Assembly (NCBI GenBank): GCA_947482115.1
Contig: CANKII010000001.1
Location: 448,785 to 512,784 of the forward strand
Direction of reading: 5' to 3'
DNA: 64,000 nucleotides
Source of the DNA: Fibrobacterota bacterium
GTDB lineage: Bacteria; Fibrobacterota; Fibrobacteria; UBA11236
Within the stretch, counting starts at the first letter, position 1; the number at the start of each line of letters is the position of its first letter. This document shows positions 25,393 to 63,657 of the stretch, one piece after another. Under the pieces are notes generated by a model, which was given only the letters and a program-made list of their open reading frames with translations, did not search any database and had not been told where the DNA came from. The translations under genes were made by a program, and so were the position numbers.

Positions 25393-25412
25393 TGCGACTT
25401 GCTTCGTGGGAT

Positions 25413-27455: not shown

Positions 27456-27539
27456 GGTAACCTCGCTTTTCCTTATGACAAGCCCTAACCCAGATTTAAT
27501 TTCGCTTCGTTTCTGCAAAAATGTTGGCAAATTCGGCGC

Positions 27540-29396: not shown

Positions 29397-29484
29397 GGGC
29401 CTCTCCATTTGTGTCTTGTAAAAAGAATATTCCCTTTTGAACTTTAACCCGGCGACTCCAGAAAATGTTGGTAAAACCCGATCC

Positions 29485-31773: not shown

Positions 31774-31869
31774 GGAATCTCCCTTATTTACCTGTAATAA
31801 TATTCATTCAAATTGGCATTAATCCCGCGTTCGGAAAAATACCGTTCGTAAATTCCGAACAGTTGCGTT

Positions 31870-32583
31870 TTAATCCAAATAATGAATAGGGGAGTTGCGA
31901 TCCACGCCCACGGCGCTACGCTCATAGAAGGTTGCCAGCAAAGCAGACCGCTCTTCCGGTGACAGTGAATGCTTATCGCGACCGTTCTCACGCAGCCAAT
32001 GATCCAAGGTTGCAATGATGACTCCGGCGCAGACAGAAACGTTCAGGCTTTCAGTAAGACCTTGCTGGGGAATACGGAAACGAACATCCGCCCGTTTCAA
32101 AGTTTCAGGATGATTTCCCATGGTTTCCGAACCGAGATAGAAGGCTACCGGCTGCGAAAGATCCAAGTCATACAACGATGTTTCGGCGGAAGTAGATGCC
32201 ACGGCGATTTTATAACCGCGACCGCGAAGATTATCCAGACATTCGACGCGGCGGGAATGGCAGAAAATGTCCAGCCACTTGTAACTGCCCTTGAGTACCG
32301 AACGCGTCACACGATAAGGGTTGACCTCGTTGATGACATGCACATCCTGAAAACCAAACACTTCGCAAGTGCGAATCACGGCGCTGATATTGTGCGGGTC
32401 CTTGAGATCCTCCATCACCAGCGAGAAATGTCGTGTGCGCCGGGATACCACACCCTGCAATAATTTCCTCCGCGCCTCGGTGAGTTTCAATCCATACTTT
32501 TGCAAAGCTTCGCGCACCGCGGGATCTTCGGCTAATGCGGCTTCGGGTAACAAAGGCAATGCCATTTCAACGAGGCCGCTCAT
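31870..32583 (-). CDS. SpoU/TrmH-family RNA 2'-O-methyltransferase
   Basis: SPOUT motifs (HNISAVIRTCEVFG, VASTSAETSLYD, GSETMGN, GLTESLNVSVCAGVI); ATG at 32583 overlaps upstream gene stop (ATGA). Confidence 0.75.
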   Translation of the reverse strand: MSGLVEMALPLLPEAALAEDPAVREALQKYGLKLTEARRKLLQGVVSRRTRHFSLVMEDLKDPHNISAVIRTCEVFGFQDVHVINEVNPYRVTRSVLKGSYKWLDIFCHSRRVECLDNLRGRGYKIAVASTSAETSLYDLDLSQPVAFYLGSETMGNHPETLKRADVRFRIPQQGLTESLNVSVCAGVIIATLDHWLRENGRDKHSLSPEERSALLATFYERSAVGVDRNSPIHYLD

Positions 32584-49806: not shown

Positions 49807-49964
49807 ATCAGGGTTTGCGAACAGGATTCATTGACAGCTTTCTCAGGGTTTCGAACGGTCATAAATTTAACACCCTGGGCAATCTTGAGGAACAGTTTGA
49901 TATTGAATGTGATAAGCATTTGATTTTAAAGCAACAAACCCGTGAAGGAGATACATTTCAACTC

Positions 49965-50675
49965 ATGCAAAGCCCTGCAAAAGACAAGTTACCGGAGGCC
50001 GTAGAGAGCTTTCTGCTAACGGTCAAGATTTTGGAGGAATCGCTCAAGTCGCTTCCCGAAAATGTGGACGGGGCCTATTATCAGGCTTTGGAAAAGGCAT
50101 TGGAAAATGTTCCTGCCGTGCATCAGGCTTACGATCGTTACATCTCCGCTGCGCTGGTGGCGGATGGAAAAAACATCACCTGCAAAAAAGGATGCTCGGC
50201 CTGCTGCCGTCATTTTGTGACGAGTGTAGAGCCTTTCGAAATCCTCGCGCTGCATCTTCGTATTCGTAAATCGGAACAGTACCCGGATCAACTGTTTGCC
50301 TGCCACAGTCGCGTCACGAAGTTTGATCAACTTCTCAAGAAGGAAGGGGAGGACCCGGAAGCCGAAGACCGGGCGTTGTATCGCTATTTCCTCCGTGGCG
50401 CAGCTTGTCCCTTTCTGAAGCAGGATGGGGAATGTGGCGTCTACGAAAACCGACCCATGTCGTGTCGCATGTTCTTTGCCGAGTCTCCGCCGCGATTCTG
50501 TTCCGGCAAGGAAGTGGTATCTCCGTGGAATAAAAACTTTCAGGTGGAATTGCCGGATGTGGCGGAGGAAGCGCTCGCGAGATGTTCGGCATTGCTGGAT
50601 AACTTGGAGCTACCCGTGGGTTTATTCTCCGGTGTGTTGGACGCAAATGCCTTATTTGGGAAGTATGAGAGTTAG
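49965..50675 (+). CDS. YkgJ-family (UPF0153) Zn/Fe-S cluster CxxCxxCC domain protein
   Basis: CKKGCSACCRHF ... CPFLKQDGECGVYENRPMSCRMF; start uncertain (49815 upstream alternative). Confidence 0.55.
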   Translation: MQSPAKDKLPEAVESFLLTVKILEESLKSLPENVDGAYYQALEKALENVPAVHQAYDRYISAALVADGKNITCKKGCSACCRHFVTSVEPFEILALHLRIRKSEQYPDQLFACHSRVTKFDQLLKKEGEDPEAEDRALYRYFLRGAACPFLKQDGECGVYENRPMSCRMFFAESPPRFCSGKEVVSPWNKNFQVELPDVAEEALARCSALLDNLELPVGLFSGVLDANALFGKYES

Positions 50676-50698
50676 TTAACATTAGATTTCATACCACC

Positions 50699-51604
50699 AT
50701 GAAGCCTAGTTCGAAAATCATCACTTACAAATTCAAATCAGGTTTTCCGCATGAGATAGAACTGGTATCCTTGAAATCCTCTTTTGAAGAAAGCAAGCGT
50801 TTGCTGACTGAACCTCACAGGGCGGATTTTTATCACGTCCTCTGGTTCAAGAAAGGTCGGCCCGCACATCTGGTTGATTTCAATCCCATCCGTATTCAAC
50901 CGGGAACGTTTTTGTTCATCGGAAAAGGAAGGGTCATTATGTTTGACAAACTGGGGGATTATGACGGAATGGCACTGCGCTTCACAGATTCTTTTTTCTG
51001 CAGAAATGTGGAAGACTCACAGTATCTGAACAGCACGCCGCTATTTAACTCTTACAATGAGATTCCGATTATTGCATTAAAATCTTCCCCTTCCGACTTG
51101 AGCCATATTCTTGAACAGATTCAGAATGAAATCACCTTCCCATCCGATGCCAAACAACATCTGGTGCTGCAAAACTTCGTACACAATTTCCTGATTCTGG
51201 CGGAGCGTCAATTCCATCCAAAGCCGATCAAAATGGTTCGGGATGGCGCCGATCTGCAATACGGAGAGAAATTCTCCCTGCTTTTGGATCAACACTTCAA
51301 AACCTCCAAACACTTGGCAGAATACGCCGGGAAAATGTTCATCACCGAGAAAAAATTATCCAAGGTAATTTCGAGGATGTTCGGAAAATCACCCAAGGAA
51401 ATGATCGACGATCGTGTGGTTCTTGAAGCAAAGAGACTTTTACTATTCAGTAATTCCAACGTAAAGCAAATATCCCAAGAACTCGGTTTCGACGAAGCGA
51501 CAAACTTCATCAAATATTTTCGGAAACATGTGGCTCAAACTCCGAATACATTCCGGGCGCGCTATCTCACAGGAGCCGTTCCAGATTTACCCCAAAAGGG
51601 CTGA
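50699..51604 (+). CDS. AraC-family transcriptional regulator
   Basis: C-terminal dual HTH_18 (…HLAEYAGKMFITEKKLSKVISRMFGKSPKEMI...ISQELGFDEATNFIKYFRKHVAQTPNTFR). Confidence 0.8.
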   Translation: MKPSSKIITYKFKSGFPHEIELVSLKSSFEESKRLLTEPHRADFYHVLWFKKGRPAHLVDFNPIRIQPGTFLFIGKGRVIMFDKLGDYDGMALRFTDSFFCRNVEDSQYLNSTPLFNSYNEIPIIALKSSPSDLSHILEQIQNEITFPSDAKQHLVLQNFVHNFLILAERQFHPKPIKMVRDGADLQYGEKFSLLLDQHFKTSKHLAEYAGKMFITEKKLSKVISRMFGKSPKEMIDDRVVLEAKRLLLFSNSNVKQISQELGFDEATNFIKYFRKHVAQTPNTFRARYLTGAVPDLPQKG

Positions 51605-51670
51605 ATCTTACCCTCTCCAACATAGTGGTCGCACTTATCTTCCATCAATCCGGAGATGGAGGAATAATAC

Positions 51671-52609
51671 TTGAGCACAATATTCCGAATTTTACCAGCA
51701 ATCTTCTGTGTTTTATGGGCGGGTTGTCTGTTCGACAACTCGAGCCAAGGCGATGAATCCGGTTCCAATTGGACTTTACGAAATCCTTCCGTGACGGCGA
51801 ATGTACTGGAATCCGTCATTTGGTCGGGTTCACAATTTGTTGCGGTCGGGGACTCGACTTCCAATGCCGGTTATTACGGAGTCATTCTCACCTCGCCAGA
51901 TGGGATATCCTGGACAAATCGTCCATCCGGAATGGAACATTGGCTTTATTCGGTAGCCTGGTCTGAAACGAAGTTCAATACCGTAGGTTACTACGGAGTT
52001 ATGCTGACGTCACCCGATGGAATTACATGGACCATTCAAAATTCAGGTTCAGGGGCTGTTCTCCGTTCTGTAACCTGGACTGGTTCACAATTTGTTGCAG
52101 TGGGTAATGGAGCCATTCTGACTTCACCAGACGGCATCACATGGATGGATCGGAGCGTTGACGTTACTCCAGGCTTGTTATCGGTAATCTGGACGGGTAA
52201 GCAATTGGTGGCTGTAGGTTGGGGTGGAACGGTTCTGACATCACCCGATGGTGTGACTTGGACCACTCGTCCTTCGGGTACAACTCTTGACCTGAATGCA
52301 GTCACATGGTCCGGCACTCAATTGGTGGCAGTAGGCGGTAATGAAGTTGCGGAAGTGATTTTGACTTCGCCTGATGGCGTAGTGTGGACTCCGCATTCGT
52401 CTGGAAAATCTCATAACCTTCGTGCTGTGACTTGGGCGAGTACGAAATTTGTCGCAGTCGGCGACAGTGGAGCCATTCTCATTTCCGCTGATGGAATAAC
52501 GTGGACTCCACGTACTTCGGAAACGACCCGTTCTTTACATTCAATCACCGGATCAAATTCCAGATTGGTGGTAGTAGGTGATAGCGGCACCATCCTTACG
52601 TCACCTTAG
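51671..52609 (+). CDS. lipoprotein with Ycf48/BNR-like beta-propeller repeats
   Basis: Lipobox WAGCL; eight to nine ~36-aa repeats (V)ILTSPDG(I/V)TWT. Confidence 0.6.
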   Translation: MSTIFRILPAIFCVLWAGCLFDNSSQGDESGSNWTLRNPSVTANVLESVIWSGSQFVAVGDSTSNAGYYGVILTSPDGISWTNRPSGMEHWLYSVAWSETKFNTVGYYGVMLTSPDGITWTIQNSGSGAVLRSVTWTGSQFVAVGNGAILTSPDGITWMDRSVDVTPGLLSVIWTGKQLVAVGWGGTVLTSPDGVTWTTRPSGTTLDLNAVTWSGTQLVAVGGNEVAEVILTSPDGVVWTPHSSGKSHNLRAVTWASTKFVAVGDSGAILISADGITWTPRTSETTRSLHSITGSNSRLVVVGDSGTILTSP

Positions 52610-52719
52610 TTCAACACACCCGTTCCAAATTTACCGTACAAGGGCTGAAGCTTACCATTCCCCGCAGCACCAGCTCAGCGTATTTTCTCGCATACAAATT
52701 GATGGAGAGAGGGGAAACG

Positions 52720-54561
52720 ATGAAACAGATAAACATGCGTTTTGTTTTGTTGGCAATCTTAGGATGCTTGAGTCCGTGTTTTTCGCAGTTCACCTATCCA
52801 GGATGCGCCAATCTGGCAGCCACCGATTTCAGGGAAGTGGTGCTTGTTGGGCGCTCATCATCCGTTAATGGCGTTACACCTTTGGCAATTGACGCTAACC
52901 TCACGGAACCGGTGGGCATGTACGTGCATACCGACGGAAAGGTTTATTGGGCAGAACGCAGCAATATCGGAAACAGCAACGCTCAAAACGGGGTGGGGCG
53001 CATCAAGGTCTTTGACCCATCCACCAACACAGTCACCACCGTGCTCACGCTCGCTACTTCGGGTGGTACTACAAATGGAGTGGGAGGTAATGAGGCTGGC
53101 GTTCGATATGTCACCTTGCATCCGAATTTCAATGTCAATCGCTGGGCTTACGTGCAGTACATGCCTCGTGCCATCTCCACAGGAAGAAATGTGGACACAA
53201 CCGTGCTCTCAAGGTTTGTGGTGATGCCAAATGGAATGTTTGATTCCACCAGCGAGAAGAAATTTCTCAAAATGGCATGGACTCCTGGCGTAAATCACCA
53301 TGGTGGTGGACTGGATTGGGACGCTCAAGGAAACCTCTACATTGCCACCGGACACAATACGGAGAGAACGACGGACTATGCTCCCATGAATTCAGCACTG
53401 CTGGGGACGGCTGGAGAAAACAAGGACAGAGCGACACAGGACGATCAAGCCCATTCGGCCAATACGATGGATTGGAGGGGAAAACTCCTGCGCATTCATC
53501 CCGACAGTTCCGCCAAAGGCTATAGTATTCCGTCGGGAAATTTGCGTCAAAGGTTTTATGAAGTAGGTGGTTCATGGGTGGCGGGACAGGATACGAATAA
53601 AATTCTGCCCGAAATCTACAGCTTTGGCTTTCGCAACCCTTACTCCATTTCCGTCGACAAGCGAACGGGATGGGTGACAATCGGAGACATGGGGCCTGAT
53701 GCCGCCGCTGCCGCCGCAGCTTCCGGACCGGCAGGTGGAGATGATTTTGACCTGATCACAAAGCCAAGTTTCAACGGCTGGCCCTATTTCATCGGCCCTA
53801 ATCGGGGATACAACATGTGGAACCCTTCCACAAACAATTATTCCCTGCCCGTTCAAAGCCCAGACACGGTTTACAACAATTCACCCAACAACAACGGTGT
53901 TACTAGGCTGCCCACGGCCCTTGCCAGCATACTTTCTGAATCCAGAAATGGAGCGCTCAACACGGGAGTTGCAGCGGCTTTTGGCACCACCGGAGGAATG
54001 GGATCGGTAACAGGACCCATCTATCATTACAACGATTTTCCGGCATCATCCAAAAAGTGGCCTCCGCATTTGGAAGGCAAGTGGATTATTGCCGAATCGG
54101 CGCGTAACAACGTCTATGTGGCGACTCCCAACAGCGCTGGGACTGCCGTGACAGACCTGCAAGTCATTCCCGGTTCCGCCACCGTTTTCAGGCCGTCTGG
54201 AACAGTCGGGATCATCGACATGAAAATGGGACCCGAAGGAGCGCTTTACCTGATTCATTATTCCGGAAATTGGACATCCGGAACCACAACCCGTATTTCA
54301 CGTGTCGAATATGCAGGAACATGCAGCCCGGCTACGGTGTCCATTGTTGGAAGCAGAGCCGACATCAAGCCAATTCAAAAACTCATTTACACTAATCTTG
54401 GAGATGGAACGTTGTTCTGGCCTGTTGGAATGAAGCGCCTCACCGCGTTTGACCTGCAAGGAAAAATTTTGTGGTCGGCGATGCGTCAAGCCTCGGAAAA
54501 CACCGTATCCATTCCAGCCGGATTACGCAGTGACTTGCTGAAAGTGCGATACGTCCAATGA
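52720..54561 (+). CDS. PQQ-dependent sugar dehydrogenase-like beta-propeller (GSDH family) with probable T9SS C-terminal domain
   Basis: Signal peptide MKQINMRFVLLAILGCLSPCFSQ; FGFRNPYSISVDKRTGWVTIGDMGPD GSDH-type blade motif; ~80-aa C-terminal beta-sandwich-like tail. Confidence 0.55.
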   Translation: MKQINMRFVLLAILGCLSPCFSQFTYPGCANLAATDFREVVLVGRSSSVNGVTPLAIDANLTEPVGMYVHTDGKVYWAERSNIGNSNAQNGVGRIKVFDPSTNTVTTVLTLATSGGTTNGVGGNEAGVRYVTLHPNFNVNRWAYVQYMPRAISTGRNVDTTVLSRFVVMPNGMFDSTSEKKFLKMAWTPGVNHHGGGLDWDAQGNLYIATGHNTERTTDYAPMNSALLGTAGENKDRATQDDQAHSANTMDWRGKLLRIHPDSSAKGYSIPSGNLRQRFYEVGGSWVAGQDTNKILPEIYSFGFRNPYSISVDKRTGWVTIGDMGPDAAAAAAASGPAGGDDFDLITKPSFNGWPYFIGPNRGYNMWNPSTNNYSLPVQSPDTVYNNSPNNNGVTRLPTALASILSESRNGALNTGVAAAFGTTGGMGSVTGPIYHYNDFPASSKKWPPHLEGKWIIAESARNNVYVATPNSAGTAVTDLQVIPGSATVFRPSGTVGIIDMKMGPEGALYLIHYSGNWTSGTTTRISRVEYAGTCSPATVSIVGSRADIKPIQKLIYTNLGDGTLFWPVGMKRLTAFDLQGKILWSAMRQASENTVSIPAGLRSDLLKVRYVQ

Positions 54562-55412
54562 ATCATCGAAGAAAAATCCAAATCGGTTGCATGTTGGCCA
54601 TGATGTTTTTTGCAACACGACCCGCAATTTCAAACACCAAGGAGAATAAAATGGAAAACCGAGAAAAAGCCGTGGCACTGTTGAACAGCATCGAATCGGG
54701 AGATGCGGGTCCGGCCACGAATTATGTGAACCCGAACAAATACATCCAGCACAATCTCGGAGTTGCCGACGGACTTCAAGGCTTCGGAGCACTGTTGCAA
54801 TTATTACCCAAAGGTTCTGCCAAGGTCAAAGTCGTTAGGGCCTTTCAGGATGGAGATTACGTTTTCACGCATACGGATTACAATTTCTTCGGCCCAAAAA
54901 TCGGATTCGATATTTTCCGCTTTGAAGACGGAAAGATTGTGGAGCATTGGGACAATTTGCAGGAAACCATTCTGAGAAATCCCAGCGGCCACTCCATGGT
55001 CGACGGGTCGACGGAAATCACGGACTTGGAAAAAACCGAGGCGAACAAAACCTTAGTTCTCTCTTTCATCTCGGATATTCTTGTCAATGGAAAGATGGAT
55101 AAGCTGGCCGGATATTTTGACGGGGACAATTATATCCAGCATAATCCGCATATTGCCGACAAACTGTCGGGCCTCGGAGCGGCAATCGAGGCTATGGCCA
55201 AACAAGGCATCGCAATGAAGTACGAACAAGTCCACAAGGTGCTTGGCGAAGGAAATTTTGTGCTGGCGGTGAGCGAAGGAAATTTCGCCGGAAAGCGAAC
55301 TTCGTTCTATGATCTTTTCCGAGTCGAAAACGGAAAAATTGCCGAGCATTGGGATGTGATGGAAACCATTCCCGAAAAAGAGGAGTGGAAGAATGGGAAT
55401 GGAAAGTTTTGA
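54558..55412 (+). CDS. secreted protein with two tandem SnoaL-like (NTF2-fold) domains
   Basis: Signal peptide; two internal repeats each ending ...FRFEDGKIVEHWD / ...FRVENGKIAEHWD typical of SnoaL-like cyclase/ester-cyclase fold. Confidence 0.55.
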   Translation: MNHRRKIQIGCMLAMMFFATRPAISNTKENKMENREKAVALLNSIESGDAGPATNYVNPNKYIQHNLGVADGLQGFGALLQLLPKGSAKVKVVRAFQDGDYVFTHTDYNFFGPKIGFDIFRFEDGKIVEHWDNLQETILRNPSGHSMVDGSTEITDLEKTEANKTLVLSFISDILVNGKMDKLAGYFDGDNYIQHNPHIADKLSGLGAAIEAMAKQGIAMKYEQVHKVLGEGNFVLAVSEGNFAGKRTSFYDLFRVENGKIAEHWDVMETIPEKEEWKNGNGKF

Positions 55413-55444
55413 TGAGCCCAGATGGGGGATAAGGGTGGATGGAA

Positions 55445-55516
55445 TTATTCCGCCTTCACCCATCTTTTCAACACGTGTTCCTTCCATACCTCAAACGTCC
55501 CCTCCAAAATCTGCTG
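55445..55516 (-). pseudogene. displaced/duplicated 3'-terminal fragment of tgt (24 codons incl. stop)
   Basis: Minus-strand reads QQILEGTFEVWKEHVLKRWVKAE* vs Tgt C-terminus QQILDGTFEVWKDQLLRSWMKVEE*; first 38 nt identical to tgt (1 mismatch), remainder diverged; preceded by in-frame stops. Confidence 0.5.
55479..55516. repeat. 38-bp direct repeat, left copy (att-like)
   Basis: TCCTTCCATACCTCAAACGTCCCCTCCAAAATCTGCTG; partner at 62558..62595 differs at one base. Confidence 0.8.
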
Positions 55517-55601
55517 TCACTACTTTAGATAATTTTGAATTACCAACCAGCCGGTGCTCCGGCATGTTGGAGGCCAACGCATTGTTTGGACGATTTGAAG
55601 C

Positions 55602-55955
55602 TTAAACATCCATGGACTTGACTTTCCTTTTCCTGTGAATAGGTCGTTCAAAGTATTCATCGTGCTTGAGTCCATAGGCTAACGTAAAAGATCCCATCGC
55701 GGCAAAGGGTATGAGCAGCAGGTGAACCCACCCGTCCATCATATAATTCGCCGTAATGCAACCAAGCCAGTACACCAACAATGCAGTCGTAGCCAGCCAC
55801 AGTGCCAGAACCATTTTCCTGTTCAAGTCCCTGGGTTTGTGCAAATGGATTGGACCCGGGACCCATATTGTCTTCGCGGTTTTCATATTGACTCCTTTCT
55901 CCAACTTTGTCTTTCCGAAAAATCCCGCCCCGATGTTGAATCGAAGCGGGACCAA
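55602..55955 (-). CDS. small hypothetical membrane protein
   Basis: 117 aa ORF with two predicted TM helices (VLALWLATTALLVYWLGCI..., LLLIPFAAMGSFTLAYGL); start uncertain (internal MKTAK). Confidence 0.35.
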   Translation of the reverse strand: MVPLRFNIGAGFFGKTKLEKGVNMKTAKTIWVPGPIHLHKPRDLNRKMVLALWLATTALLVYWLGCITANYMMDGWVHLLLIPFAAMGSFTLAYGLKHDEYFERPIHRKRKVKSMDV

Positions 55956-55994
55956 GGATTGCCGATTAGATAGTTAGCCTTTCGGTGCAATCCT

Positions 55995-57581
55995 TTAAGG
56001 GTTGTATTCCTTCAAAACTTCCTTGTTCATGACCTCCAGTTCAGTGCGTCGGTTGAACTTGCGTCCTTCGGCGGTACGGTTATCCGCCTTGGGTCGTGTG
56101 AACCCGTAACCTTTTGCGGTCAAGTGGCCATTAAGGGAAGGTTCAGTCTGTCCCATATACCGCATCACGGCTTCCGCCCGGCCTTGACTCAACCCCATGT
56201 TATAATCCGCGCCTCCCACATTATCCGTGTGGCCAGCCACCTCAATTTGAAGTTTGGGGTATTTGACAAGCATCTTGGCAATAATGTTGAGGTAGGGTTT
56301 GGAATTGATCGAGATTTCCGTTTTGCCGGTTTCGAAGTAAACCGCATCCAGCAACAGCAGGCCCGTGCTTAACAATTGCTTTTCAGCCTCGGATCGCTTT
56401 GAGCGCTCTTCAGCAAGCGAAGCCTGCGAAGCGGCAAGACTGGAGGCAAGGTTGATGGAATCCTGGCGTGCCTTGGCCGCAATGGAATCGGCGATGGCTT
56501 TTTGCCTGGCCTGTTTCATCGCATCCGCAAAAGCCAGGCTGTCCTTGGACTCCTCGGCGTTTCTGGCCCGGTTTTTCAGCGCGATTCTGTCCAGTGAATC
56601 CTGACGCGCCTTTTCGGCCTCCTGAAGCTTTCTCTCGGCCTGCGTATCATAGGAAATGCTTACGGAAGCGAAAGCCCTCCACGGTTCCAGCGCCCTGTCC
56701 GGAGCGCTCCGATCCTTGGACAGCGAAAAGTCCGCCCCTAATCCAACGTTTAAATGCGCTGGGGTTCGGAAGGTCACGGAAGGCGTTGCCCACAGGGGAT
56801 CGGTGCTGAGGGGTTTGGCCAGGAAAGTGCGGCTGTTTATTTCCGCTCCCAGAACGAGGGGGGGCATCACGATGAATTGTGCGCCCACTCCTGTAACCAG
56901 CAGAACGTCCTTGCCGGACTCAAAGGAGGAAACCACGCCCTCATTTAAATGAAGCTTGATCCCCATGTCTTCACCAGCAAAAACAAAGGATTGAACCAGC
57001 CGGGCCATCACATCGGTGCCCTTGCGGGTTTCAAAATAATTGTAGCCGTCCGCGCGATTCGTGTTGATTTGACTTCCGGCGATTCCGAACAGGGTCGCAA
57101 CCTGCAGCCCCAAATGCACGGGGACATTTTCAGGAAGGGGAAGGCTCCCTTGTGCTCCTAAAACGGCGGTTCCCGCTCCCGTTCCATTATCCGTGCTGTT
57201 GCGGATGTTATAAGCACCGAGGCCCACGAATCCATCGATGTAGGGATTAATCCCCAAAGCCGATCCAAAAGTGGCCGTGGTGATTTGTCCGTTCTTGGAA
57301 GGCGCGAGCGGCTCCGTTTTGGATTGCTGATAAAAATTCCCCCGCAATTGCATGCCCAGTCGTCCCGCCCCCAGCGGCTCCGCAGAAATGACGTTTGTCA
57401 TGCCCGGGGTTCCGTAGGGGGTGGTCGTAGGCTCCATGATCTGGGACATTGGCGCGGATCCGTATTTGGCGGGTGCGGGAGGCTGATCTAACGTGTCCTG
57501 TGATCTGACGGTTTGCAGGGACAGGATGAGAAGGGAAACGATGGCAACAAGAAAGCGGATAGAACAGTTTTTGAATAACAT
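55995..57581 (-). CDS. OmpA-family outer-membrane protein (N-terminal barrel, coiled-coil linker, C-terminal OmpA peptidoglycan-binding domain)
   Basis: Signal peptide; C-terminal LQIEVAGHTDNVGGADYNMGLSQGRAEAV OmpA_C motif; Ala/Lys/Gln-rich linker. Confidence 0.8.
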   Translation of the reverse strand: MLFKNCSIRFLVAIVSLLILSLQTVRSQDTLDQPPAPAKYGSAPMSQIMEPTTTPYGTPGMTNVISAEPLGAGRLGMQLRGNFYQQSKTEPLAPSKNGQITTATFGSALGINPYIDGFVGLGAYNIRNSTDNGTGAGTAVLGAQGSLPLPENVPVHLGLQVATLFGIAGSQINTNRADGYNYFETRKGTDVMARLVQSFVFAGEDMGIKLHLNEGVVSSFESGKDVLLVTGVGAQFIVMPPLVLGAEINSRTFLAKPLSTDPLWATPSVTFRTPAHLNVGLGADFSLSKDRSAPDRALEPWRAFASVSISYDTQAERKLQEAEKARQDSLDRIALKNRARNAEESKDSLAFADAMKQARQKAIADSIAAKARQDSINLASSLAASQASLAEERSKRSEAEKQLLSTGLLLLDAVYFETGKTEISINSKPYLNIIAKMLVKYPKLQIEVAGHTDNVGGADYNMGLSQGRAEAVMRYMGQTEPSLNGHLTAKGYGFTRPKADNRTAEGRKFNRRTELEVMNKEVLKEYNP

Positions 57582-57769
57582 GACTCCTCCTTTGTTAATA
57601 CATCACCAACAATTAATCTATGCGATTAAAAAACTTTGGCAAGATATTTTTTGATTTTATTTTATGTAACTATTTATTACTGATACAACCCGGACAGAAA
57701 TCCGCTGCTGATATTCCTACTCCACCGCCACCAAAAACAAATGTCCCTGCGGCGGGACTCCCTATCGTC

Positions 57770-57818
57770 CAATAAAGATCAAAAGTCTGTTTCAGGCATC
57801 AGACCCGAAACAGACTTT
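57770..57818 (-). terminator. Rho-independent terminator downstream of lipoprotein gene
   Basis: AAAGTCTGTTTC-13 nt loop-GAAACAGACTTT 12-bp stem followed on minus strand by TTGATCTTTATT. Confidence 0.6.
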
Positions 57819-57830
57819 TCTCTCCCGGCT

Positions 57831-58658
57831 TTAATCCTCCTGTGTTTCATCACCTCCGTTGCATTTGATGTGATGGATTTTCCCTTTTCCAATGACAATC
57901 ACTTCGGCCATGCCTGCGCCCTTGAAAGTGATGTCCAGAGAAAAATCACCCCGCTCCATGTGTATTACTCCATCGCTGGGGAATCCAAAACCCACGACAA
58001 AGCTTCCCAGAAAAATGAATGGGCGCTTCACCTTTTTAAAGGACCCATTCTTAAACTCGGCGCCGTTAAAGGTGCCGGTGATGGTTCCGCTCCATTCCGC
58101 TCCCGTTCTGACCCCGTTGTCAAATATCCACGTTAGAGTCGCGTTGATTTGGACCTCTATATCCACGGCCCCGTTGACCTTGACCACATGCCGGTCATGT
58201 TTAATGGTGACGGCCTGAAACGGATGGAACGTCGTCATGTAATTTCCCAGGGAATCCGTAAGCCAGATGGAATCCTGGCGCTCCCGGGTGAACGTTTTTC
58301 CGCTGGCGTTCGTAAAGGTGAATTGGGCGTCTCGCACGAAACATTTGCAGGTATCGTTGTAGTGAAGCCGGTGGATAACGATCTCTCCAGTGACCGTATC
58401 CGTGTCGGCAGTTTCTTTAGCGGAACCTTGGGCGGTGAACATTTGCCCCATGTTAATGGTTTCCTGGTTCATGAAACTGCTGGCTCCGTCGGATTGGTAG
58501 TCACCGCTGACACTGGTGGACGACATACAGCCTGTCAACGCGAAACAGGTCATTGCCACCACAATGGACGTTCTGAATAAATGGCTGAAAGAAGTTGACG
58601 TTTTCATGGATTTCCTCCTTTGTTTTCGAGCACAAACGGCCTCGAAGAGGTCACCCAT
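57831..58658 (-). CDS. hypothetical lipoprotein
   Basis: Signal peptide with lipobox LTGCMSS; 275 aa beta-rich; no family recognised. Confidence 0.45.
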   Translation of the reverse strand: MGDLFEAVCARKQRRKSMKTSTSFSHLFRTSIVVAMTCFALTGCMSSTSVSGDYQSDGASSFMNQETINMGQMFTAQGSAKETADTDTVTGEIVIHRLHYNDTCKCFVRDAQFTFTNASGKTFTRERQDSIWLTDSLGNYMTTFHPFQAVTIKHDRHVVKVNGAVDIEVQINATLTWIFDNGVRTGAEWSGTITGTFNGAEFKNGSFKKVKRPFIFLGSFVVGFGFPSDGVIHMERGDFSLDITFKGAGMAEVIVIGKGKIHHIKCNGGDETQED

Positions 58659-58893
58659 AAATTATGCGGCAATAGTCCCAAGAGCAAGTCAATTTATGGT
58701 CAGTATTTATTTCGAATAACAATTTTTACAATATTACGGAATCGTTACAGAAAAAATGTCCCTTGGAAAAGGATTCCGACGTCCATAAAAAAATCCCTCG
58801 AATGTTTGTGATGTGGAAAAGATCAACCTGACATAAAAAAAGCTGCGTACATTAAAAGAGACGGAAGGATTGAGACACAAAAAGGAGGAGATT

Positions 58894-59361
58894 ATGAAAA
58901 ACCTGATTTTGTGTTTGGCATGTGTTTTGACGATGGCAATTCCTTCAACTGCCAGTGGAGATTTTGGACTGGGAATCATCCTTGGAGCTCCATCGGGGAT
59001 TTCGGCCAAAATTGCCACAGGCCAGACAAACTCTGTAAACCTGATTCTGGGATATGATCTGAACGACGGCCCCGGCTGCTGTCGCGACAATGGCCAGCTC
59101 TACATCGGCGGAGATTATGTGTGGTACAACTACAATCTCATCCGCGTATCGAAAGGAAGGCTTCCGCTTTATTACGGCCCCGGTGCTAATGCCTCGTTTT
59201 CAAACAATTCGAGGGTGGGTGTGCGCGGTGTGATTGGGCTTGAATATCAATTCTCGGGAGCCCCTTTTGACGTGTTTCTGGAAATAGCACCCGGAATCAA
59301 CGTAATGCCCAGCACTCACGGGTATGTCTCAGGAGGGCTCGGCTCCCGATTCTTCTTCTAG
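58894..59361 (+). CDS. small outer-membrane beta-barrel protein (OmpW/OmpA-TM-like)
   Basis: RBS AAAGGAGGAG 6 nt upstream; signal peptide MKNLILCLACVLTMAIPSTASG; alternating beta-strands; C-terminal RFFF. Confidence 0.5.
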   Translation: MKNLILCLACVLTMAIPSTASGDFGLGIILGAPSGISAKIATGQTNSVNLILGYDLNDGPGCCRDNGQLYIGGDYVWYNYNLIRVSKGRLPLYYGPGANASFSNNSRVGVRGVIGLEYQFSGAPFDVFLEIAPGINVMPSTHGYVSGGLGSRFFF

Positions 59362-59372
59362 TCCAGTTTGGA

Positions 59373-60068
59373 TCAAGCAAAGACGAGAATATTCCTGCGT
59401 GCTTCGAGCCTTTTCTCCATGGCTTTGGCTCGTGGGAAAAGCACTTCGATTTCCAGCTTGGCGTGCAGGAGCAGGCGGTTTTTAAAATCGCTCATCTCAT
59501 CCTTTAAACTACCCGTGTTCAATGCCAGCTGGTCCAAATGCTGCTCATAAACATGCCCCAAACTCGCGATCATGGTTGCTGAAATTTGGTGGGTCGGATG
59601 AAATTCAGATTCCAAATTGAGGGTGCAAACATCCTCAAGGCGGAGGATATAGGGGAAAACATGCTCCTCCTCCTCATGCATGTGTTCCAAAAATGATTCT
59701 GCAAAGGATTTGAATGTTTGGTATGCGAATTTCATTCCAAAAGAATTCGGCAGTTCAGACGAATCTTGCCGGGAAAAAAGCCTGTCCAGAATGGGAATAT
59801 CTTCATCCCGAAACTGGCGGTGTTCCGCATTAAGAAAATCCACAATGCGATAGGAACGCTCCCGATTCCAATCCGAGTCAGATGATGGAACAGGCATTGT
59901 CTCAGCCACACGGAGCAATTCCGCAAAATCGGTTCCTGTTTCACGGCAAAAGGATTCCACCGTCATGTCGAGATGATTCCAAAAAGAATGACCTGTAGTC
60001 TCCAGCAATTCTATCACAATGGGACGCTGGCGTATGAGTTTGGAAAGGGAAGCGTTTTCTGAAAACAT
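59373..60068 (-). CDS. hemerythrin-like di-iron protein, RIC/YtfE/ScdA-like (iron-sulfur cluster repair) candidate
   Basis: N-terminal ScdA_N-like segment (LIRQRPIVIELLETTGHSFWNHLDMTV...FAELL) plus His/Glu-rich HHE-type motifs (NAEHRQFRDED, LEHMHEEEEHVFPYIL, LGHVYEQHLDQ); start ATG 60068 after AAGGAGG. Confidence 0.5.
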   Translation of the reverse strand: MFSENASLSKLIRQRPIVIELLETTGHSFWNHLDMTVESFCRETGTDFAELLRVAETMPVPSSDSDWNRERSYRIVDFLNAEHRQFRDEDIPILDRLFSRQDSSELPNSFGMKFAYQTFKSFAESFLEHMHEEEEHVFPYILRLEDVCTLNLESEFHPTHQISATMIASLGHVYEQHLDQLALNTGSLKDEMSDFKNRLLLHAKLEIEVLFPRAKAMEKRLEARRNILVFA

Positions 60069-60388
60069 GGGACACCCTCCTTTCGGGAATATACTGTGCT
60101 TCGGAAAGCATTGCAATTAAAAGGGACGTCAAAATACTTGGCAAAAAACTGTCCCATAATTTCTGAATCACGCGTCTCTCCCACATGTTGAGATCCTTGC
60201 GGTACAGCTTAAGCGGCCGTAGTTATTGGGGTTGTTACGATCCGTAATAAAACAGAATCAACAGAAACCCAAACATTGCAACACGCTCATATCAAATCTC
60301 CTGATATTTATGATATGAGGACTGACAGTCATTTAATCCGGGAGATCCACATGCCGCCATAAGTTGACGGAAAACAAAGGAGATGAAC

Positions 60389-61792
60389 ATGAAACGGCAA
60401 GCTTTTTTTCTCACACTATCCCTTCTTGTAACCCTGTCGCTGCCCCAGGAGAATTATTCAACTTGGGCTTATCACAAAAATCTCATTCTGAACACATCCG
60501 GATCGGGGGCAAACGTCATGAGCGATGTTTACAATTTCCCCGTGTTAGTCCGTCTGGGAGTCTCTGATGCCGCCATCTTCACACAAGCTGTTGGAAATGG
60601 AAAAGACATCCGGTTCACCAAACGGGACAATGTCACCCGTTTGCCACATCAGCTGGAGCTTTGGGATGTTGCGAATAAATCTGCAGCTATTTGGGTGCTG
60701 GTGGATACCATTCACGGAAACGTGAGCAACCAATCGATCCGAGTGCATTGGGGGCAGGGAGCCGCCCAAGACAGTTCCAACGGGGCGGCAGTTTTTGACA
60801 CGGGCAGGGGTTTTCAGGCGGTATGGCACATGGATGGAAACGCCCCGGCAAGCGATGAACCCGATGCCACAAAAAACGGATTCACTGCCGCTCAAAATTC
60901 GAATCCCGCCTCGGTATCGGGAATGATTGCAGGAGCACGCAACTTTGATGGAAGCTTCAATTATTTTTCGACTACAAACACGGCCAGTGGTCCATTGAAT
61001 TTCCCTCAAAACGGTCGCTATACAATTTCCGCATGGGTCAACGCGGTGGCGTTTACTGCCCACGGGGTTGTCGTTTCCAAGCATGACCGGCAATATGCGC
61101 TGAAACTCAATAACGGCAACAGTTGGGAATTTTTCGAGTTTGAGGACGCATCCGGATGGAATGCCGTGTCTTATCCTCCAGCGGACGCCCAGGGAACATG
61201 GGAATACCTGACCGGAGTATGGGATGGATTCAATGCTTACCTGTATATCAACGGCATTCAGGTGGGCAACAGTCCGAACCTCACGAGTAGCACGAATGCA
61301 AGGGTTACGAACACGAATGTGACCATAGGGCGCCAGAACGAAAGCGCCAATCGGTATTTCATGGGGCTTATGGATGAAGTTCGGATGGCCAGTGTTTCAA
61401 GGGATTCCAACTGGGTCCGGTTGGAATTTCAGAATCAGCAGGCCAATCAAACCCTGGCATCCCTTTCAGATACCATTCCAACCGGTATTGGGAGACCTCC
61501 GCTTTTGACCGCATCTGAGCCACGCCTCTCAATCGATTTACAGAGTGGCAGTCTCATTGTCCGCATGCAAAAAAGCGATGCTTTAAAGGTTCGTCTGCTG
61601 ATGATGGACGCTCAAGGCCGGACAATCTGGAATCAAACCGTTGGAATGAGTCCGGGAATGAACCGGATCACCTGGAATCGACAGCTTGGTAACGAAAGGG
61701 TGACAGGGATTTGTCTTTTACAAGCCACTTTCCTGGACGCAAAAAAAAGAACGATTTCAATCGTCGAAAGGAAAATTCCGTTTATCCGGTAG
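60389..61792 (+). CDS. secreted DUF2341 + LamG/concanavalin-like domain protein with probable T9SS C-terminal domain
   Basis: Signal peptide MKRQAFFLTLSLLVTLSLPQ; DUF2341-like N-domain (WAYHKNLILNTSG...DIRFTKRDN...LELWD); LamG_3 motifs (QAVWHMDGN...GLMDEVRMASVSR); C-terminal ~85 aa beta-sandwich tail. Confidence 0.55.
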   Translation: MKRQAFFLTLSLLVTLSLPQENYSTWAYHKNLILNTSGSGANVMSDVYNFPVLVRLGVSDAAIFTQAVGNGKDIRFTKRDNVTRLPHQLELWDVANKSAAIWVLVDTIHGNVSNQSIRVHWGQGAAQDSSNGAAVFDTGRGFQAVWHMDGNAPASDEPDATKNGFTAAQNSNPASVSGMIAGARNFDGSFNYFSTTNTASGPLNFPQNGRYTISAWVNAVAFTAHGVVVSKHDRQYALKLNNGNSWEFFEFEDASGWNAVSYPPADAQGTWEYLTGVWDGFNAYLYINGIQVGNSPNLTSSTNARVTNTNVTIGRQNESANRYFMGLMDEVRMASVSRDSNWVRLEFQNQQANQTLASLSDTIPTGIGRPPLLTASEPRLSIDLQSGSLIVRMQKSDALKVRLLMMDAQGRTIWNQTVGMSPGMNRITWNRQLGNERVTGICLLQATFLDAKKRTISIVERKIPFIR

Positions 61793-62062
61793 ACCGGGTT
61801 ATGCTCCTGTGCGAAGGGTTGTTGCAAACCGGCTCTTCGCATGAAGATGTTTTGCCACAGGGACTTAGGATGACGGCTTAACGTATCCTTTTGAAATCCG
61901 GATGCAACATGGATTACAGGCCGGATACAAAACCTGATTTTCCAAAAAACCTGCTGCCGTTTTTAAAACAGTTGGATATTATACAGGAAAGTTCGGTTTC
62001 CCTGGAATTAGGGAAAGTAAAACCCACCTTGTTGCTCAACATTAAACGCTGGGGTAATCGTT

Positions 62063-62506
62063 ATGTTGAAAGTTCAGGACAAATTCGGAAACGCTAAAAT
62101 ATCCGAACGTAGAGTGGATCCGGATCCGGCGCCCGAAATGTTCACCTTCAAAGATGTCCTGCAATCCAAACGATCCTCCATAACGCTCTACGAAGGCGAG
62201 AACGAATTTTTGTTGTCGGCGGACCTGAAAGGCTGTCATAAAAAGAATCTGGATATTCACTTTGGTTGCGAGACTTTAATGCTTTCGGGTTACCGAAAAT
62301 CGCCTGAAGAAAAATTCGAGAAATGCATTCGTTTTGAGGCACCCATTCAAAAGAAGGGCATGCGGGCGTGGTTTTCAAAAAACCTTCTTCTGGTGAGTTT
62401 ACCCAAGGCCAAGAACGTGCCGGTTGAAAGAGAAATTAAAGGGCGGGCCATTCCGTCGCATCTGAATGAAATCATTCAGAGAAAACCGGAGATGGTGGCG
62501 ATATAG
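62063..62506 (+). CDS. Hsp20/alpha-crystallin family small heat-shock protein
   Basis: ACD pattern ...ITLYEGENEFLLSADLKGCHKKNLDIHFGCETLMLSGYR...RFEAP...AWFSKNLLLVSLPK. Confidence 0.8.
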   Translation: MLKVQDKFGNAKISERRVDPDPAPEMFTFKDVLQSKRSSITLYEGENEFLLSADLKGCHKKNLDIHFGCETLMLSGYRKSPEEKFEKCIRFEAPIQKKGMRAWFSKNLLLVSLPKAKNVPVEREIKGRAIPSHLNEIIQRKPEMVAI

Positions 62507-62520
62507 AAAAGGCCGATTGG

Positions 62521-63657
62521 TTACTCCTCGACCTTCATCCAACTCCTCAGTAACTGATCCTTCCATACCTCAAACGTCCCATCCAAAATCTGCTGCCGCG
62601 CCACCCGCATCAAGTCCTGATAGAAATGCAGACTGTGCAGCGTCGCCAGTTCCAGCGCCAGAATTTCTCCGGAAACAAAAATATGCCGCAGATAGGCCCG
62701 TGAGAAATTACGACAGCAATAACACGAGCAATCCGGATCAACAGGCATATCCAGCTCCTTCGCATGCCGCGCCGCCTTATAATGAAAAGGCCCATTCCAT
62801 GTGAATACGGTTCCATGCCGCGCGGCGCGCGTGGGGAGAACGCAGTCGAACATGTCGATGCCCCGGGAAATTAATTCCAGCAAATTGGCTGGTGTGCCCA
62901 CGCCCATCACATAACGCGGTTTGTTGGTGGGCATCAAATTCGTGGAAAAGTCGGCTACGGAATACATCTCTTCAGCCGGTTCACCGACAGAAAGGCCGCC
63001 CAGCGCATAACCTGGCAGATCCAGTTTGATCAAATGTTCAATGGCTTTGGCCCGCAATTCCTCGTGCATTCCGCCCTGCGCGATGCCGAAGAAATATTGC
63101 GGATAGCCGTGCATCTCCGGATGATCCTTTAGCCATGTCACAGCGCGTTCATGCCAGCGCTGCGTCAGCTCAAGACTTTTCACTGCCACGTCCTTCGTAG
63201 CTGGATAGGGAGTGCATTCGTCGAAGGCCATGAAAATATCCGCACCAAGTTTGCGCTGTGCTTCCATCACACTTTCCGGCGTGAACATGTGTTTCGAGCC
63301 ATCGAGATGGGAGCGGAACTCCACACCTTTTTCTGTCAGCTTGCGCAAAGTTTCCAGACTCCATACCTGAAACCCGCCCGAGTCGGTGAGCATGGCATGC
63401 GGCCAGCTGGCGAAGCGATGCAGTCCTCCGGCTTGGGCCACGAGATCGCAACCGGGACGGAGATACAGGTGATAGGTGTTTCCAAGAATTAATCGCGCGC
63501 CCGTGTCCGCCACATCGCGCGGGGAAACGGCCTTGACCGCACCCGCGGTGCCTACTGGCATGAACACTGGTGTTTGAATGGTGGCATGAGCGGTATGCAA
63601 TGTACCCGCGCGCGCCTTGCTTGCGGAAGACGTTTTCTCGAGATTGAAAAAGCTCAT
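62521..63657 (-). CDS. tgt: queuine tRNA-ribosyltransferase
   Basis: 378 aa; TPVFMPVGTAGAVK, catalytic Asp regions, zinc site CSCYCC...H; 3' end carries right copy of 38-bp direct repeat. Confidence 0.9.
   Translation of the reverse strand: MSFFNLEKTSSASKARAGTLHTAHATIQTPVFMPVGTAGAVKAVSPRDVADTGARLILGNTYHLYLRPGCDLVAQAGGLHRFASWPHAMLTDSGGFQVWSLETLRKLTEKGVEFRSHLDGSKHMFTPESVMEAQRKLGADIFMAFDECTPYPATKDVAVKSLELTQRWHERAVTWLKDHPEMHGYPQYFFGIAQGGMHEELRAKAIEHLIKLDLPGYALGGLSVGEPAEEMYSVADFSTNLMPTNKPRYVMGVGTPANLLELISRGIDMFDCVLPTRAARHGTVFTWNGPFHYKAARHAKELDMPVDPDCSCYCCRNFSRAYLRHIFVSGEILALELATLHSLHFYQDLMRVARQQILDGTFEVWKDQLLRSWMKVEE
62558..62595. repeat. 38-bp direct repeat, right copy (inside tgt 3' end)
   Basis: TCCTTCCATACCTCAAACGTCCCATCCAAAATCTGCTG. 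Confidence 0.8.

Follow-up and report, generated by a model that had tools for sequence, protein, structure and literature searches.

The interval between the convergent core genes p286 and tgt reads as a gene-exchange hotspot in this Fibrobacteria clade, and in the 64,000-nucleotide stretch of Fibrobacterota DNA analysed here (the window) it holds two gene cassettes, S1 and S2, side by side. The newer insert is most likely a 4,930-bp unit carrying S1, with the crossover in the 3′ end of p286. A sequence-only reading of the window had instead proposed S2 as an island integrated at the 3′ end of tgt and bounded by a 38-nt direct repeat; this repeat is probably passenger sequence rather than a recombination site.

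Remnants of tgt and p286 inside the interval

The intact tgt gene (62521..63657, minus strand; Pfam TGT, E=1.3e-150) encodes a queuine tRNA-ribosyltransferase of 378 aa that ends in QQILDGTFEVWKDQLLRSWMKVEE-stop, and the identical protein is present on >20 public contigs. The direct repeat at its end is genuine: the window contains the 37-mer CCTTCCATACCTCAAACGTCCCMTCCAAAATCTGCTG at 55480-55516 and at 62559-62595 and nowhere else, against 0.00 occurrences expected from shuffles. The two copies form a 37/38-nt direct repeat differing at a single base, are spaced by 7,079 bp, start one base away from where they had been placed before, and show ungapped likeness over as much as 64 nt at 84%. The proximal copy (the 'core', minus strand) encodes QQILDGTFEVWK within tgt, and the last 11 codons of the gene (tail1, 62521-62558, minus strand) follow it. 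The distal copy had been said to continue as a diverged tgt tail, and translation confirmed that it does so in frame: the minus strand at 55445-55516 reads stop-QQILEGTFEVWKEHVLKRWVKAE-stop, made up of the second core copy and a diverged tail with its own stop codon (tail2, 55445-55479). Two stop codons lie ahead of this remnant, which is the only such tgt fragment in the window (tblastn E=1.6e-8), and homology between the two tgt copies ends abruptly upstream of CAGCAG. Identity between them is uneven, with 1/38 mismatches in the core versus 12/33 in the tail (Fisher p=3e-4); the cores differ by no synonymous and one nonsynonymous change, the tails by four synonymous and seven nonsynonymous changes in 10 codons. 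The tgt remnant is a true scar of recombination. Public annotations list a 70-aa 'gene' that is an artefact of the scar.

Adjoining it is a second gene-tail remnant that the sequence-only reading, which did see the first, had overlooked. It lies at 55525..55605 on the plus strand and comprises the last 26 codons and stop of a ykgJ-like gene (LDNFELPTSRCSGMLEANALFGRFEA, tblastn E=3.6e-8). The functional counterpart is p286 (49965..50675, plus strand; longest ORF from 49815), a ykgJ-type CxxCxxCC cysteine-cluster gene (Pfam CxxCxxCC; homologues named YkgJ family) that forms the conserved left flank of the hotspot. The two remnants stand back to back, separated by an 8-nt junction, TCACTACT (55517..55524), that matches neither gene and that we interpret as an illegitimate joint which may have closed or permuted a donor fragment. 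They are the only flanking-gene fragments of this sort in the window.

A three-way alignment with the closest relative found, L166 (about 90% nucleotide identity), divides both p286 tails into zones. Functional p286 is L166-like up to 50627, passes through a crossover zone at 50628-50657 and ends in six foreign codons (50658-50675); the remnant is foreign at 55525-55557, ambiguous in the corresponding crossover zone at 55558-55587, and L166-like from 55588-55605 onwards into the downstream sequence. Counted over the 11 codons that precede the crossover zone, then over the final 13 codons and over the next 40 nt downstream, matches to L166 are 35/42, 28/39 and 13/40 for the functional gene, and 23/42, 34/39 and 38/40 for the remnant. 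By this alignment, each p286 tail in the window is part L166-like and part foreign, and the two are reciprocal chimeras. Within the 30-nt zone identity is imperfect, the longest identical run being 7 nt (TGTTGGA), and the tail repeats are alike only at codon positions 1-2. The first seven codons of the remnant differ from the functional copy by six synonymous changes and one nonsynonymous change, which points to a functional gene of another lineage as their source and not to decay.

Relative to L166 the indel is a unit of 4,930 bp (50658..55587, with boundaries uncertain within the 30-nt crossover zones), in the order foreign p286 tail, S1, tgt remnant, junction and foreign p286 fragment.

Contents of the interval in related genomes

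Convergent tgt and p286 are neighbours in 7-8 relatives, directly adjacent in five of them (L001, L083, L153, L163 and L181) and separated by about 40 nt in L002 and L004, and synteny with the relatives picks up again at window position 50668. The window therefore has 11.9 kb extra, made up of S1 (50676-55444) and S2 (55606-62520). Altogether the interval occurs in five states: empty (seven loci), with a CheX/CheX/CheY set (L003), with a 577-aa repeat protein (L179/L180), with S2 (L166), and with S1 and S2 together (the window). The 577-aa protein is 42-47% identical to the product of the second S1 gene, so in some lineages S1-type content natively occupies the p286-tgt interval. The flanks consist of core genes (radA-like plus further syntenic ones). 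All same-species contigs share the identical S1 and S2 arrangement, and no polymorphism was seen among them.

Cassette S1 consists of four plus-strand genes, which encode an AraC-type regulator (50699-51604), a TSPDG-repeat protein (51671-52609), a glucose/sorbosone-dehydrogenase-like protein (52720-54561) and a tandem SnoaL-like protein (54651-55412). Neither L166 nor any more distant relative examined has S1. Cassette S2, the proposed island, shares no gene with S1. It encodes a small membrane-like ORF (55602-55886, minus), an OmpA-domain protein (55995-57581, minus), ORFs of 275 aa (57831-58658, minus) and 163 aa (58870-59361, plus), a hemerythrin/RIC-like protein (59373-60116, minus), a DUF2341-LamG protein (60383-61792, plus), an ORF of 62-68 aa (61891-62097, plus) and a weakly Hsp20-like protein (62063-62506, plus); three S2 ORFs match no family. 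The cargo list drawn up from sequence was broadly right; the RIC-like and Hsp20-like proteins fall below the curated cut-offs and no S2 protein matched a T9SS tail model. That S2 is accessory DNA between conserved genes holds good, as it is missing from genus-level relatives. Composition is only mildly atypical, and it is S1 (GC 0.488 versus 0.524 in core genes), not the proposed island, that deviates more. The absence of an integrase was borne out: scans of the ORFs across 40-64 kb with Pfam, PHROGs and NCBIfam returned no recombinase, integrase or excisionase. Searches for tRNAs, Rfam families, and phage-contig or plasmid signals found none, and the tgt core does not occur in viral contigs.

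In L166, a single metagenomic contig of 1,181 bp that covers 304 nt of S2 and stops short of tgt, p286 (96% amino acid identity) is joined directly to the first gene of S2, without S1 and without the tgt remnant. Positions 176-910 of this contig correspond to 49926-50659 of the window at 90.2% identity and positions 878-1181 to 55557-55860 at 91.8%; p286 and S2 are thus similarly diverged, which fits vertical co-inheritance of S2. Between window and L166, dS is 0.49 in p286 and 0.25 in the first gene of S2.

Origin of the S1 unit and its alternatives

We favour, with somewhat better than even confidence, a history in which S1 was gained beside a resident S2 as a piece of an allelic p286-S1-tgt locus, by crossover in the 3′ end of p286. 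In the window's lineage, S2 would first have lain between p286 and tgt, and S1 would have been acquired more recently from a related strain or species. The 4.93-kb donor piece would have started 26 codons short of the p286 end, crossed S1 and stopped 23 codons short of the tgt end. Its ends would have been joined to each other, by circularisation or by a tandem duplication in the donor, leaving the 8-nt junction and the back-to-back gene tails as the mark of joining. A single reciprocal crossover in the 3′ end of p286 could then have inserted the piece in Campbell fashion, giving p286 a new tail, shifting the old tail downstream and setting both cassettes side by side. The insert is not collinear with a linear donor fragment; donor p286 sequence is split between its two ends, from which we infer a circular or tandemly permuted intermediate, and the unit indeed resembles an allelic locus copied in circularised or permuted form. 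As to enzymology, the recombination may have been illegitimate or guided by short homology, or a trans-acting recombinase may have carried it out. The layout of the locus, the empty intervals of relatives, the p286-S2 joint in L166, the reciprocal chimerism and the lack of recombinase genes are direct observations; the intermediate, the enzymology and the direction, a gain of S1 instead of a loss, are deduced from them. No genome with the donor arrangement p286-S1-tgt(tail2) was found, L179/L180 having a homologue of one S1 gene only.

Some observations count against a gain of S1. The main weakness of this reading is that its key evidence, from the sister lineage L166, is one contig of 1.18 kb; the missing donor genome and the uniformity of the same-species contigs weigh in the same direction. 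An identical run of at most 7 nt is poor for RecA-type recombination, and loss by deletion between short repeats is generally easier than gain. The model also leaves unexplained why the two cores match at 37/38 positions and lack any synonymous change, whereas all neighbouring donor-derived sequence is 55-65% identical; only a near-conspecific donor with cassette-linked divergent tails, or chance (P 0.03-0.25), would solve this puzzle.

Integrase-mediated islands that occupy the 3′ end of a tRNA or protein gene, and CIME-type derivatives without an integrase, share with the present locus the direct repeats, the displaced and diverged gene tail and a target restored by incoming sequence. The 7.1 kb with S2 could accordingly be an integrative element, its recombinase lost or acting in trans, that entered the tgt 3′ end at the 38-nt core, with tail1 supplied by the element, tail2 native, and S1 later lost from L166 by deletion between the p286 tails. 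The near-identical repeats, a sharp outer boundary and identity falling steeply at the inner one resemble att sites, S2 is missing in genus-level relatives, and a short-repeat deletion would be mechanistically easy and would also produce the chimeric tail of L166. We nevertheless think this history unlikely. L166 has the first gene of the segment right after p286 and shows the same gene order without the repeat, an observation that the sequence-only reading had itself named as counting against it. Nor is the empty site an exact loss of the repeat-bounded segment: L166 keeps the S2 end on p286, and the distant relatives lack 11.9 kb, not 7.1 kb, so that the repeat-bounded segment is not the indel against the nearest relative. 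Reciprocal chimerism places the crossover in the ykgJ-like 3′ end (50628-50657 and 55558-55587), outside the putative core, and the tgt remnant, taken before for a displaced native tail, is joined to a foreign p286 fragment and most likely came with the S1 unit. The arrangement would moreover have to be older than the L166 split, and a core duplication of that age should by neutral drift have accumulated about 6-9 differences, not the single one observed (P about 0.001-0.03). A diverged p286 tail would also be required at the far end of the 'element'; the equal divergence of p286 and S2 from L166, the window without a recombinase and the viral contigs without the core also speak against it, as does, weakly and over 12 residues only, the resemblance of tail1 rather than tail2 to the tgt tails of the nearest relatives (KD.LL..W...EE). 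The case against the island draws on the one 1,181-bp contig and the age argument; the evidence lends no support to tgt as an integrase target.

A recombinase encoded elsewhere, of the tyrosine or serine type, might alternatively have moved the 4.93-kb S1 unit itself as a non-autonomous, CIME/IME-like element whose att site mimics the ykgJ-like 3′ end, the tgt fragment being a relic of imprecise excision. Restoration of the target gene by an element-supplied tail, a crossover within a 30-nt zone sharing TGTTGGA and the in-frame empty site of L166 would all suit such an element. This is rather improbable, as neither unit nor window has a recombinase, likeness at codon positions 1-2 only signals coding conservation instead of an identical core, fragments of both flanking genes fit a chunk of an allelic locus better than a dedicated element, and L179/L180 natively hold a homologue of an S1 gene between p286 and tgt. 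The p286-tgt interval might also have been tandemly duplicated in situ, the copies then diverging, losing genes differentially or having the cargo of one replaced. This formally fits the observed succession of tail, cassette and tail on either side of a single novel joint, the junction. Such a duplication is very improbable given that S1 and S2 have no common genes, that the duplicated tails are about 65% identical, against 97% for the core, with a synonymous bias as in separate functional lineages, and that the resident gene cannot supply the foreign part of the p286 remnant. The metagenomic source raises the thought of an assembly artefact fusing coexisting p286-S1-tgt and p286-S2-tgt strain variants, which we regard as negligible: the same arrangement and junction recur in many independent assemblies (ENA, Logan, NCBI), several contigs cross the junction, and one of the contigs carrying it is 1.75 Mb long.

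Known hotspots, displacement arrays and the stacking of cargo

The locus reads as an event of a known kind, in which recombination at a hotspot free of mobile elements displaced a gene tail. Like the hotspots described by Oliveira, Touchon, Cury & Rocha (2017, PMC5635113), it has the same flanking core genes, differing cargo, no mobile-element genes and recombination in the flanking genes; unlike them, it stacks two alternative cargoes in one genome and retains scars, fragments of both flanking genes, that let the topology be reconstructed. In 'sequential displacement' or C-terminal displacement arrays such as the T6SS effector-immunity loci of Vibrio cholerae (Kirchberger et al. 2017, PMC5361080) and the Rhs loci cited there, an incoming module likewise recombines in a conserved gene, provides a new 3′ end and pushes the old 3′ end and cargo downstream, although the displaced gene here is a housekeeping-type ykgJ-like gene and not a polymorphic toxin. 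Homology-facilitated illegitimate recombination (PMC5361080) similarly combines one homologous and one illegitimate joint with no integrase, but in its classical form a simple linear fragment misfits the donor p286 fragment on the far side of the insert. The tandem-duplication topology, single novel joint and lack of an element-encoded recombinase recall Campbell-type integration, or transformation-induced merodiploidy by unequal crossing-over (Johnston et al. 2013, PMC3784515); here, however, the 'copies' are heterologous alleles with different cargo, no long repeat mediates, and the size is about 5-7 kb versus 100-900 kb.

By itself, a displaced gene tail with a near-perfect direct repeat does not justify calling an integrase-type island or att site. 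What decided the case was the remnant of the opposite flanking gene next door, together with one close relative; the two reverse both the likely newcomer segment and the probable place of crossover. A more speculative idea, which we hold to be improbable, is that the S1 unit, and perhaps S2 before it, belongs to an unrecognised class of recombinase-less circular cassettes using back-to-back ykgJ-like and tgt 3′ ends as a composite homing site. If true, such cassettes could enter related genomes at either flank and leave the target gene restored, and the near-perfect 38-nt core would be a conserved functional site used by a recombinase of the host or one acting in trans.

Two alternative cargo sets, an AraC-regulated dehydrogenase/SnoaL set (S1) and an envelope/stress set (S2), can thus come to be stacked at a hotspot of uncultured Fibrobacteria that has no integrase, where the usual outcome would be for one to replace the other. 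This is documented here at nucleotide resolution, and the scars make the intermediate topology inferable.

Gene tails and cassettes between p286 and tgt

The 64-kb window contains exactly two copies of the 37-mer CCTTCCATACCTCAAACGTCCCMTCCAAAATCTGCTG, part of the queuine tRNA-ribosyltransferase gene tgt. One spans 55480-55516 and the other 62559-62595, where chance predicts none (0 copies, 100 shuffles). The pair (repeat family D4) is spaced 7,079 bp apart and keeps 84% ungapped similarity over 64 nt. The proximal copy falls within the 25 C-terminal codons of tgt (62521-63657, minus strand; Pfam TGT E=1.3e-150), an intact gene that ends QQILDGTFEVWKDQLLRSWMKVEE and a stop. On the minus strand, two stop codons come before the distal copy, which then runs in frame through QQILEGTFEVWKEHVLKRWVKAE to a stop; the diverged ending of this remnant, termed tail2, is …KEHVLKRWVKAE before the stop. 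These observations confirm the 38-bp direct repeat and diverged tgt tail described in the sequence-only reading. Upstream of CAGCAG the similarity of the two tgt copies breaks off sharply. The first 38 nt of the repeat hold one mismatch (0 synonymous and 1 nonsynonymous change), and the next 33 nt hold 12, with 4 synonymous and 7 nonsynonymous changes in 10 codons, a significant contrast (Fisher p=3e-4).

Eight nucleotides past the tgt fragment lies a second gene-tail fragment (55525-55605, plus strand), placed back to back with it on the opposite strand. It encodes LDNFELPTSRCSGMLEANALFGRFEA and a stop, a match to the C-terminal residues (LDNLELPVGLFSGVLDANALFGKYES before a stop) of an ORF whose end is at 50675. 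This ORF is p286 (49965-50675), a called gene for a CxxCxxCC/YkgJ-family cysteine-cluster protein. When tgt and p286 were searched against the window by tblastn, only these two fragments were returned (E=1.6e-8 and 3.6e-8). A 70-aa gene called across the same region in public assemblies (window 55393-55605, plus strand; for example L081 18053-18265) crosses the tgt remnant in antisense before entering the p286 remnant, and almost certainly reflects misannotation of the recombination scar.

The window thus reads p286 with its tail-a, cassette S1, tgt tail2 and core (the tgt repeat), 8 nt, p286 tail-b, cassette S2, tgt tail1 (the end of intact tgt) and core, and the tgt body. S1 (50676-55444) encodes an AraC regulator, a TSPDG-repeat protein, a GSDH-like protein and a tandem SnoaL protein. 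The repeat protein (51671-52609) is built from ~39-aa 'xxTSPDGxxWT' units, seen in the DNA as repeat families D1/D2 with a period of ~117 nt. The SnoaL-like protein holds two SnoaL domains as an internal tandem duplication, and its gene carries a 44-nt repeat (54909-54952 and 55311-55354) whose copies, 402 nt apart, are 82% identical. S2 (55606-62520) corresponds to the proposed island. Between the repeats are genes for OmpA-domain, hemerythrin/RIC-like, DUF2341-LamG and weakly Hsp20-like proteins and three ORFs without a family match. This is broadly the content that had been described, but the Hsp20 and RIC matches fall under curated cut-offs and no gene between the repeats matches the T9SS tail model. 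A 16-nt inverted repeat between the OmpA-domain gene and a 275-aa ORF (57781-57819; 94% complementary, 7-nt loop) is probably a terminator hairpin.

No tRNA, tmRNA or Rfam family was found, and the scan for recombinase or phage-like proteins was empty, bearing out the earlier statement that no integrase is present. The core had no match in viral contigs and S2 had none among plasmids. The possibility that S2 is a block conserved elsewhere was rejected, as its OmpA homologues (66-71% identity) lie in unrelated contexts. GC, GC3 and RSCU distance from core genes are 0.488, 0.513 and 0.349 for S1 and 0.505, 0.568 and 0.306 for S2; core genes have GC 0.524 and GC3 0.571, with a null 95th percentile for RSCU distance of 0.294. 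This weakly informative analysis is compatible with a donor inside the clade. Elsewhere in the window, 25001-32500 has a tetranucleotide distance from the window average (0.017-0.018) equal to that of the right half of S2, and carries three large minus-strand ORFs with low GC3 (0.48-0.52).

The p286 3' end compared with a sister lineage

The p286 search identified a 1,181-bp contig, L166 (scaffold_1136513 of ENA ERZ28612979 / SAMN08331103, MEHR18-2), the closest relative locus found, whose protein P0243 has 96% amino acid identity to p286. L166 1-118 aligns to window 49635-49752 (92.4%), 176-910 to 49926-50659 (90.2%) and 878-1181 to 55557-55860 (91.8%). It runs from p286 straight into the first S2 gene, without S1 and without a tgt fragment. 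The repeat-bounded 7.1 kb had been taken as the insert; this is not supported, since the segment missing from L166 is the S1 unit and the start of S2 is kept. At the 5' end of p286, where its conserved part is separated from the upstream gene, ~173 nt in the window (49752-49926) face ~57 nt in the sister lineage (L166 118-176), a length difference that is an indel or a diverged segment.

A codon-anchored three-way alignment covered three stretches: the 11 codons that precede the crossover zone, the final 13 codons and 40 nt downstream. The functional p286 tail agrees with L166 at 35/42 positions upstream, 28/39 in the last 13 codons, where the differences lie mostly within the final 6, and 13/40 downstream, a random level. 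The p286 remnant agrees at 23/42, 34/39 and 38/40, respectively. The two tails are reciprocal chimeras, each joining an L166-like part to a foreign one, and the ancestry switch maps within a 30-nt zone (50628-50657 in the functional gene, 55558-55587 in the remnant). Such a pattern is the hallmark of a single reciprocal exchange near the p286 stop codon, within the gene's 3' end, and the proposed role of the 38-mer as an att crossover core is unsupported. The unit that sets the window apart from L166 is 4,930 bp long. It begins with the foreign last p286 codons, continues through S1, the tgt remnant and the 8-nt joint, and ends with the foreign upstream portion of the p286 remnant.

The foreign p286 tail reads …LDNFELPTSRCSG.L.ANALFGKYES and a stop. 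Over its first 7 codons the foreign fragment has 6 synonymous changes and 1 nonsynonymous change relative to the resident sequence, so it came from a functional gene in another lineage rather than by decay. A joint search of 120 + 118 relatives for tgt and p286 homologues returned no tgt with tail2 and no p286 with the foreign tail; the nearest sequences were P0046 ('VLKRW') and P0244 ('LDNLELP...GKYEG'), the latter from a 3,174-bp contig of ERZ27297570.

Gain in the window and loss in L166 would leave identical chimeras, and age was used to choose between them. Had a second tgt core predated the L166 split, this unconstrained copy should by now differ from the functional one at ~6-9/38 positions; because only 1 difference is observed (P about 0.001-0.03), the tgt duplication is most likely younger than the split, with L166 as the prior state and gain as the direction. 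Synonymous divergence between window and L166 is 0.49 for p286 (dN 0.016) and 0.25 for the first S2 gene, and the similar divergence of p286 and S2 from L166 is compatible with vertical inheritance of S2 alongside p286. The newcomer is most likely the 4.9-kb S1 unit, and S2 older accessory DNA.

The p286-tgt interval in the species and its relatives

The arrangement is real and fixed in the sampled population, because every same-species public contig (ENA KAVA23-1 samples, Logan and two NCBI assemblies; longest carrier 1.75 Mb) has the identical S1 and S2 arrangement, at 99.98-100% identity with 0-2 SNPs over 10-16 kb. None of these contigs showed an empty or intermediate form. The tgt protein cluster has no sequence variants, and apparent variants of S1 proteins were rejected as alternative gene calls on identical DNA. 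One contig, L170 (ENA KAVA23-1 SAMEA14109830 scaffold_10501; compared with 47769-53037), is 100% identical up to 53037, inside the GSDH-like gene, and then continues into unrelated sequence encoding a sigma-54 activator; the break reflects structural variation or a chimeric assembly.

The window comes from an uncultured Fibrobacteria bacterium whose closest named matches are Fibrobacteria MAGs. In L001, L083, L153, L163 and L181 (tgt 76-85% amino acid identity), tgt and p286 are convergent neighbours with gaps of ~2-100 nt (12 nt in L001); the gap is ~40 nt in L002 and L004 (72% identity). Synteny of the relatives with the window picks up at 50668 and continues to about 40 kb. Compared with all empty-state relatives, the window has 11.9 kb of extra DNA (50676-62520), inside which the tgt remnant separates S1 from S2; an empty tgt site lacking 7.1 kb had been expected, and the genus-level relatives lack 11.9 kb instead. 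Other relatives fill the same interval differently, with two CheX-like genes and a CheY-like response regulator in one Fibrobacteria MAG (L003 11280-12730), and with a sole gene for a 577-aa protein, 42-47% identical to the S1 repeat protein, in L179/L180 (L179 3279-5012). S1 and S2 are alternative fillings of one interval, each framed by p286 and tgt tails, with one novel joint, and this interval is a hotspot. In L163/L164 (ERZ26871208, 'np1212' contigs) many genes are split (DnaB, MlaE, ABC; tgt called as 290 aa), as is typical of uncorrected long-read indels, and protein lengths there are unreliable.

A proposed history and its known counterparts

Parts of the donor-derived p286 fragment lie at both ends of the insert, so the incoming DNA was not a simple linear collinear piece; we infer that it must have been circular or have come from a joint formed by tandem duplication in the donor. 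The source would have been a related strain or species carrying p286-S1-tgt. A segment of that locus would have closed on itself, joining a point 26 codons before the p286 stop to one 23 codons before the tgt stop and creating the 8-nt joint, and a single recombination with the resident p286 tail would have followed. Such a history would account for the lack of an integrase, the fragments of both flanks, their back-to-back order and an intact p286 with a new tail. The crossover zone shows similarity at codon level only, with TGTTGGA as the longest identical run, which suggests that the enzymology was that of illegitimate or short-homology recombination or of a trans-acting recombinase. Simple linear homology-facilitated illegitimate recombination and unequal crossover at the 8-nt joint were both rejected, as each conflicts with an upstream half of the p286 remnant that is not L166-like; in-situ duplication was rejected on the divergence pattern.

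Two features are left unexplained by the proposed history. Nothing in the family-wide xGLF motif corresponds to the 12-nt block 55546-55557 ('TSRC'), and the core (37/38, without synonymous change) sits between donor-derived stretches 55-65% identical to the resident. The L001 tgt tail is ~56% identical to that of the window by hand count and its core matches at 34/39, suggesting that gene tails evolve fast at this locus. A 37/38 core has P 0.1-0.4 given a donor ~90-95% identical in the conserved stretch, and P 0.03 given one as distant as L001. A near-conspecific donor with cassette-linked tails of other ancestry would explain the core, and the 38 nt may have a functional role. We regard the proposed history as a whole, resting on a single short sister-lineage contig with the donor not found, as moderately probable.

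The repeated tgt tail is a scar left by recombination in a hotspot without an integrase. The specifics of an island integrated at tgt through a 38-bp att core are unsupported: unlike an integrase-type island, the locus has no recombinase and its repeat-bounded segment is not the L166 indel, and a search of the literature for integration at tgt yielded nothing relevant. The p286-tgt locus falls under the definition of a hotspot between core genes without mobile elements (PMC5635113), and the event resembles homology-facilitated illegitimate recombination. In T6SS effector-immunity arrays and Rhs loci, an incoming module provides a new 3' end and shifts the old end and cargo downstream (PMC5361080); the event in the window resembles this 'sequential displacement' or C-terminal displacement, and has the same topology as Campbell insertion or transformation-induced tandem duplication (PMC3784515). 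The locus is a further example of an already known kind of event.
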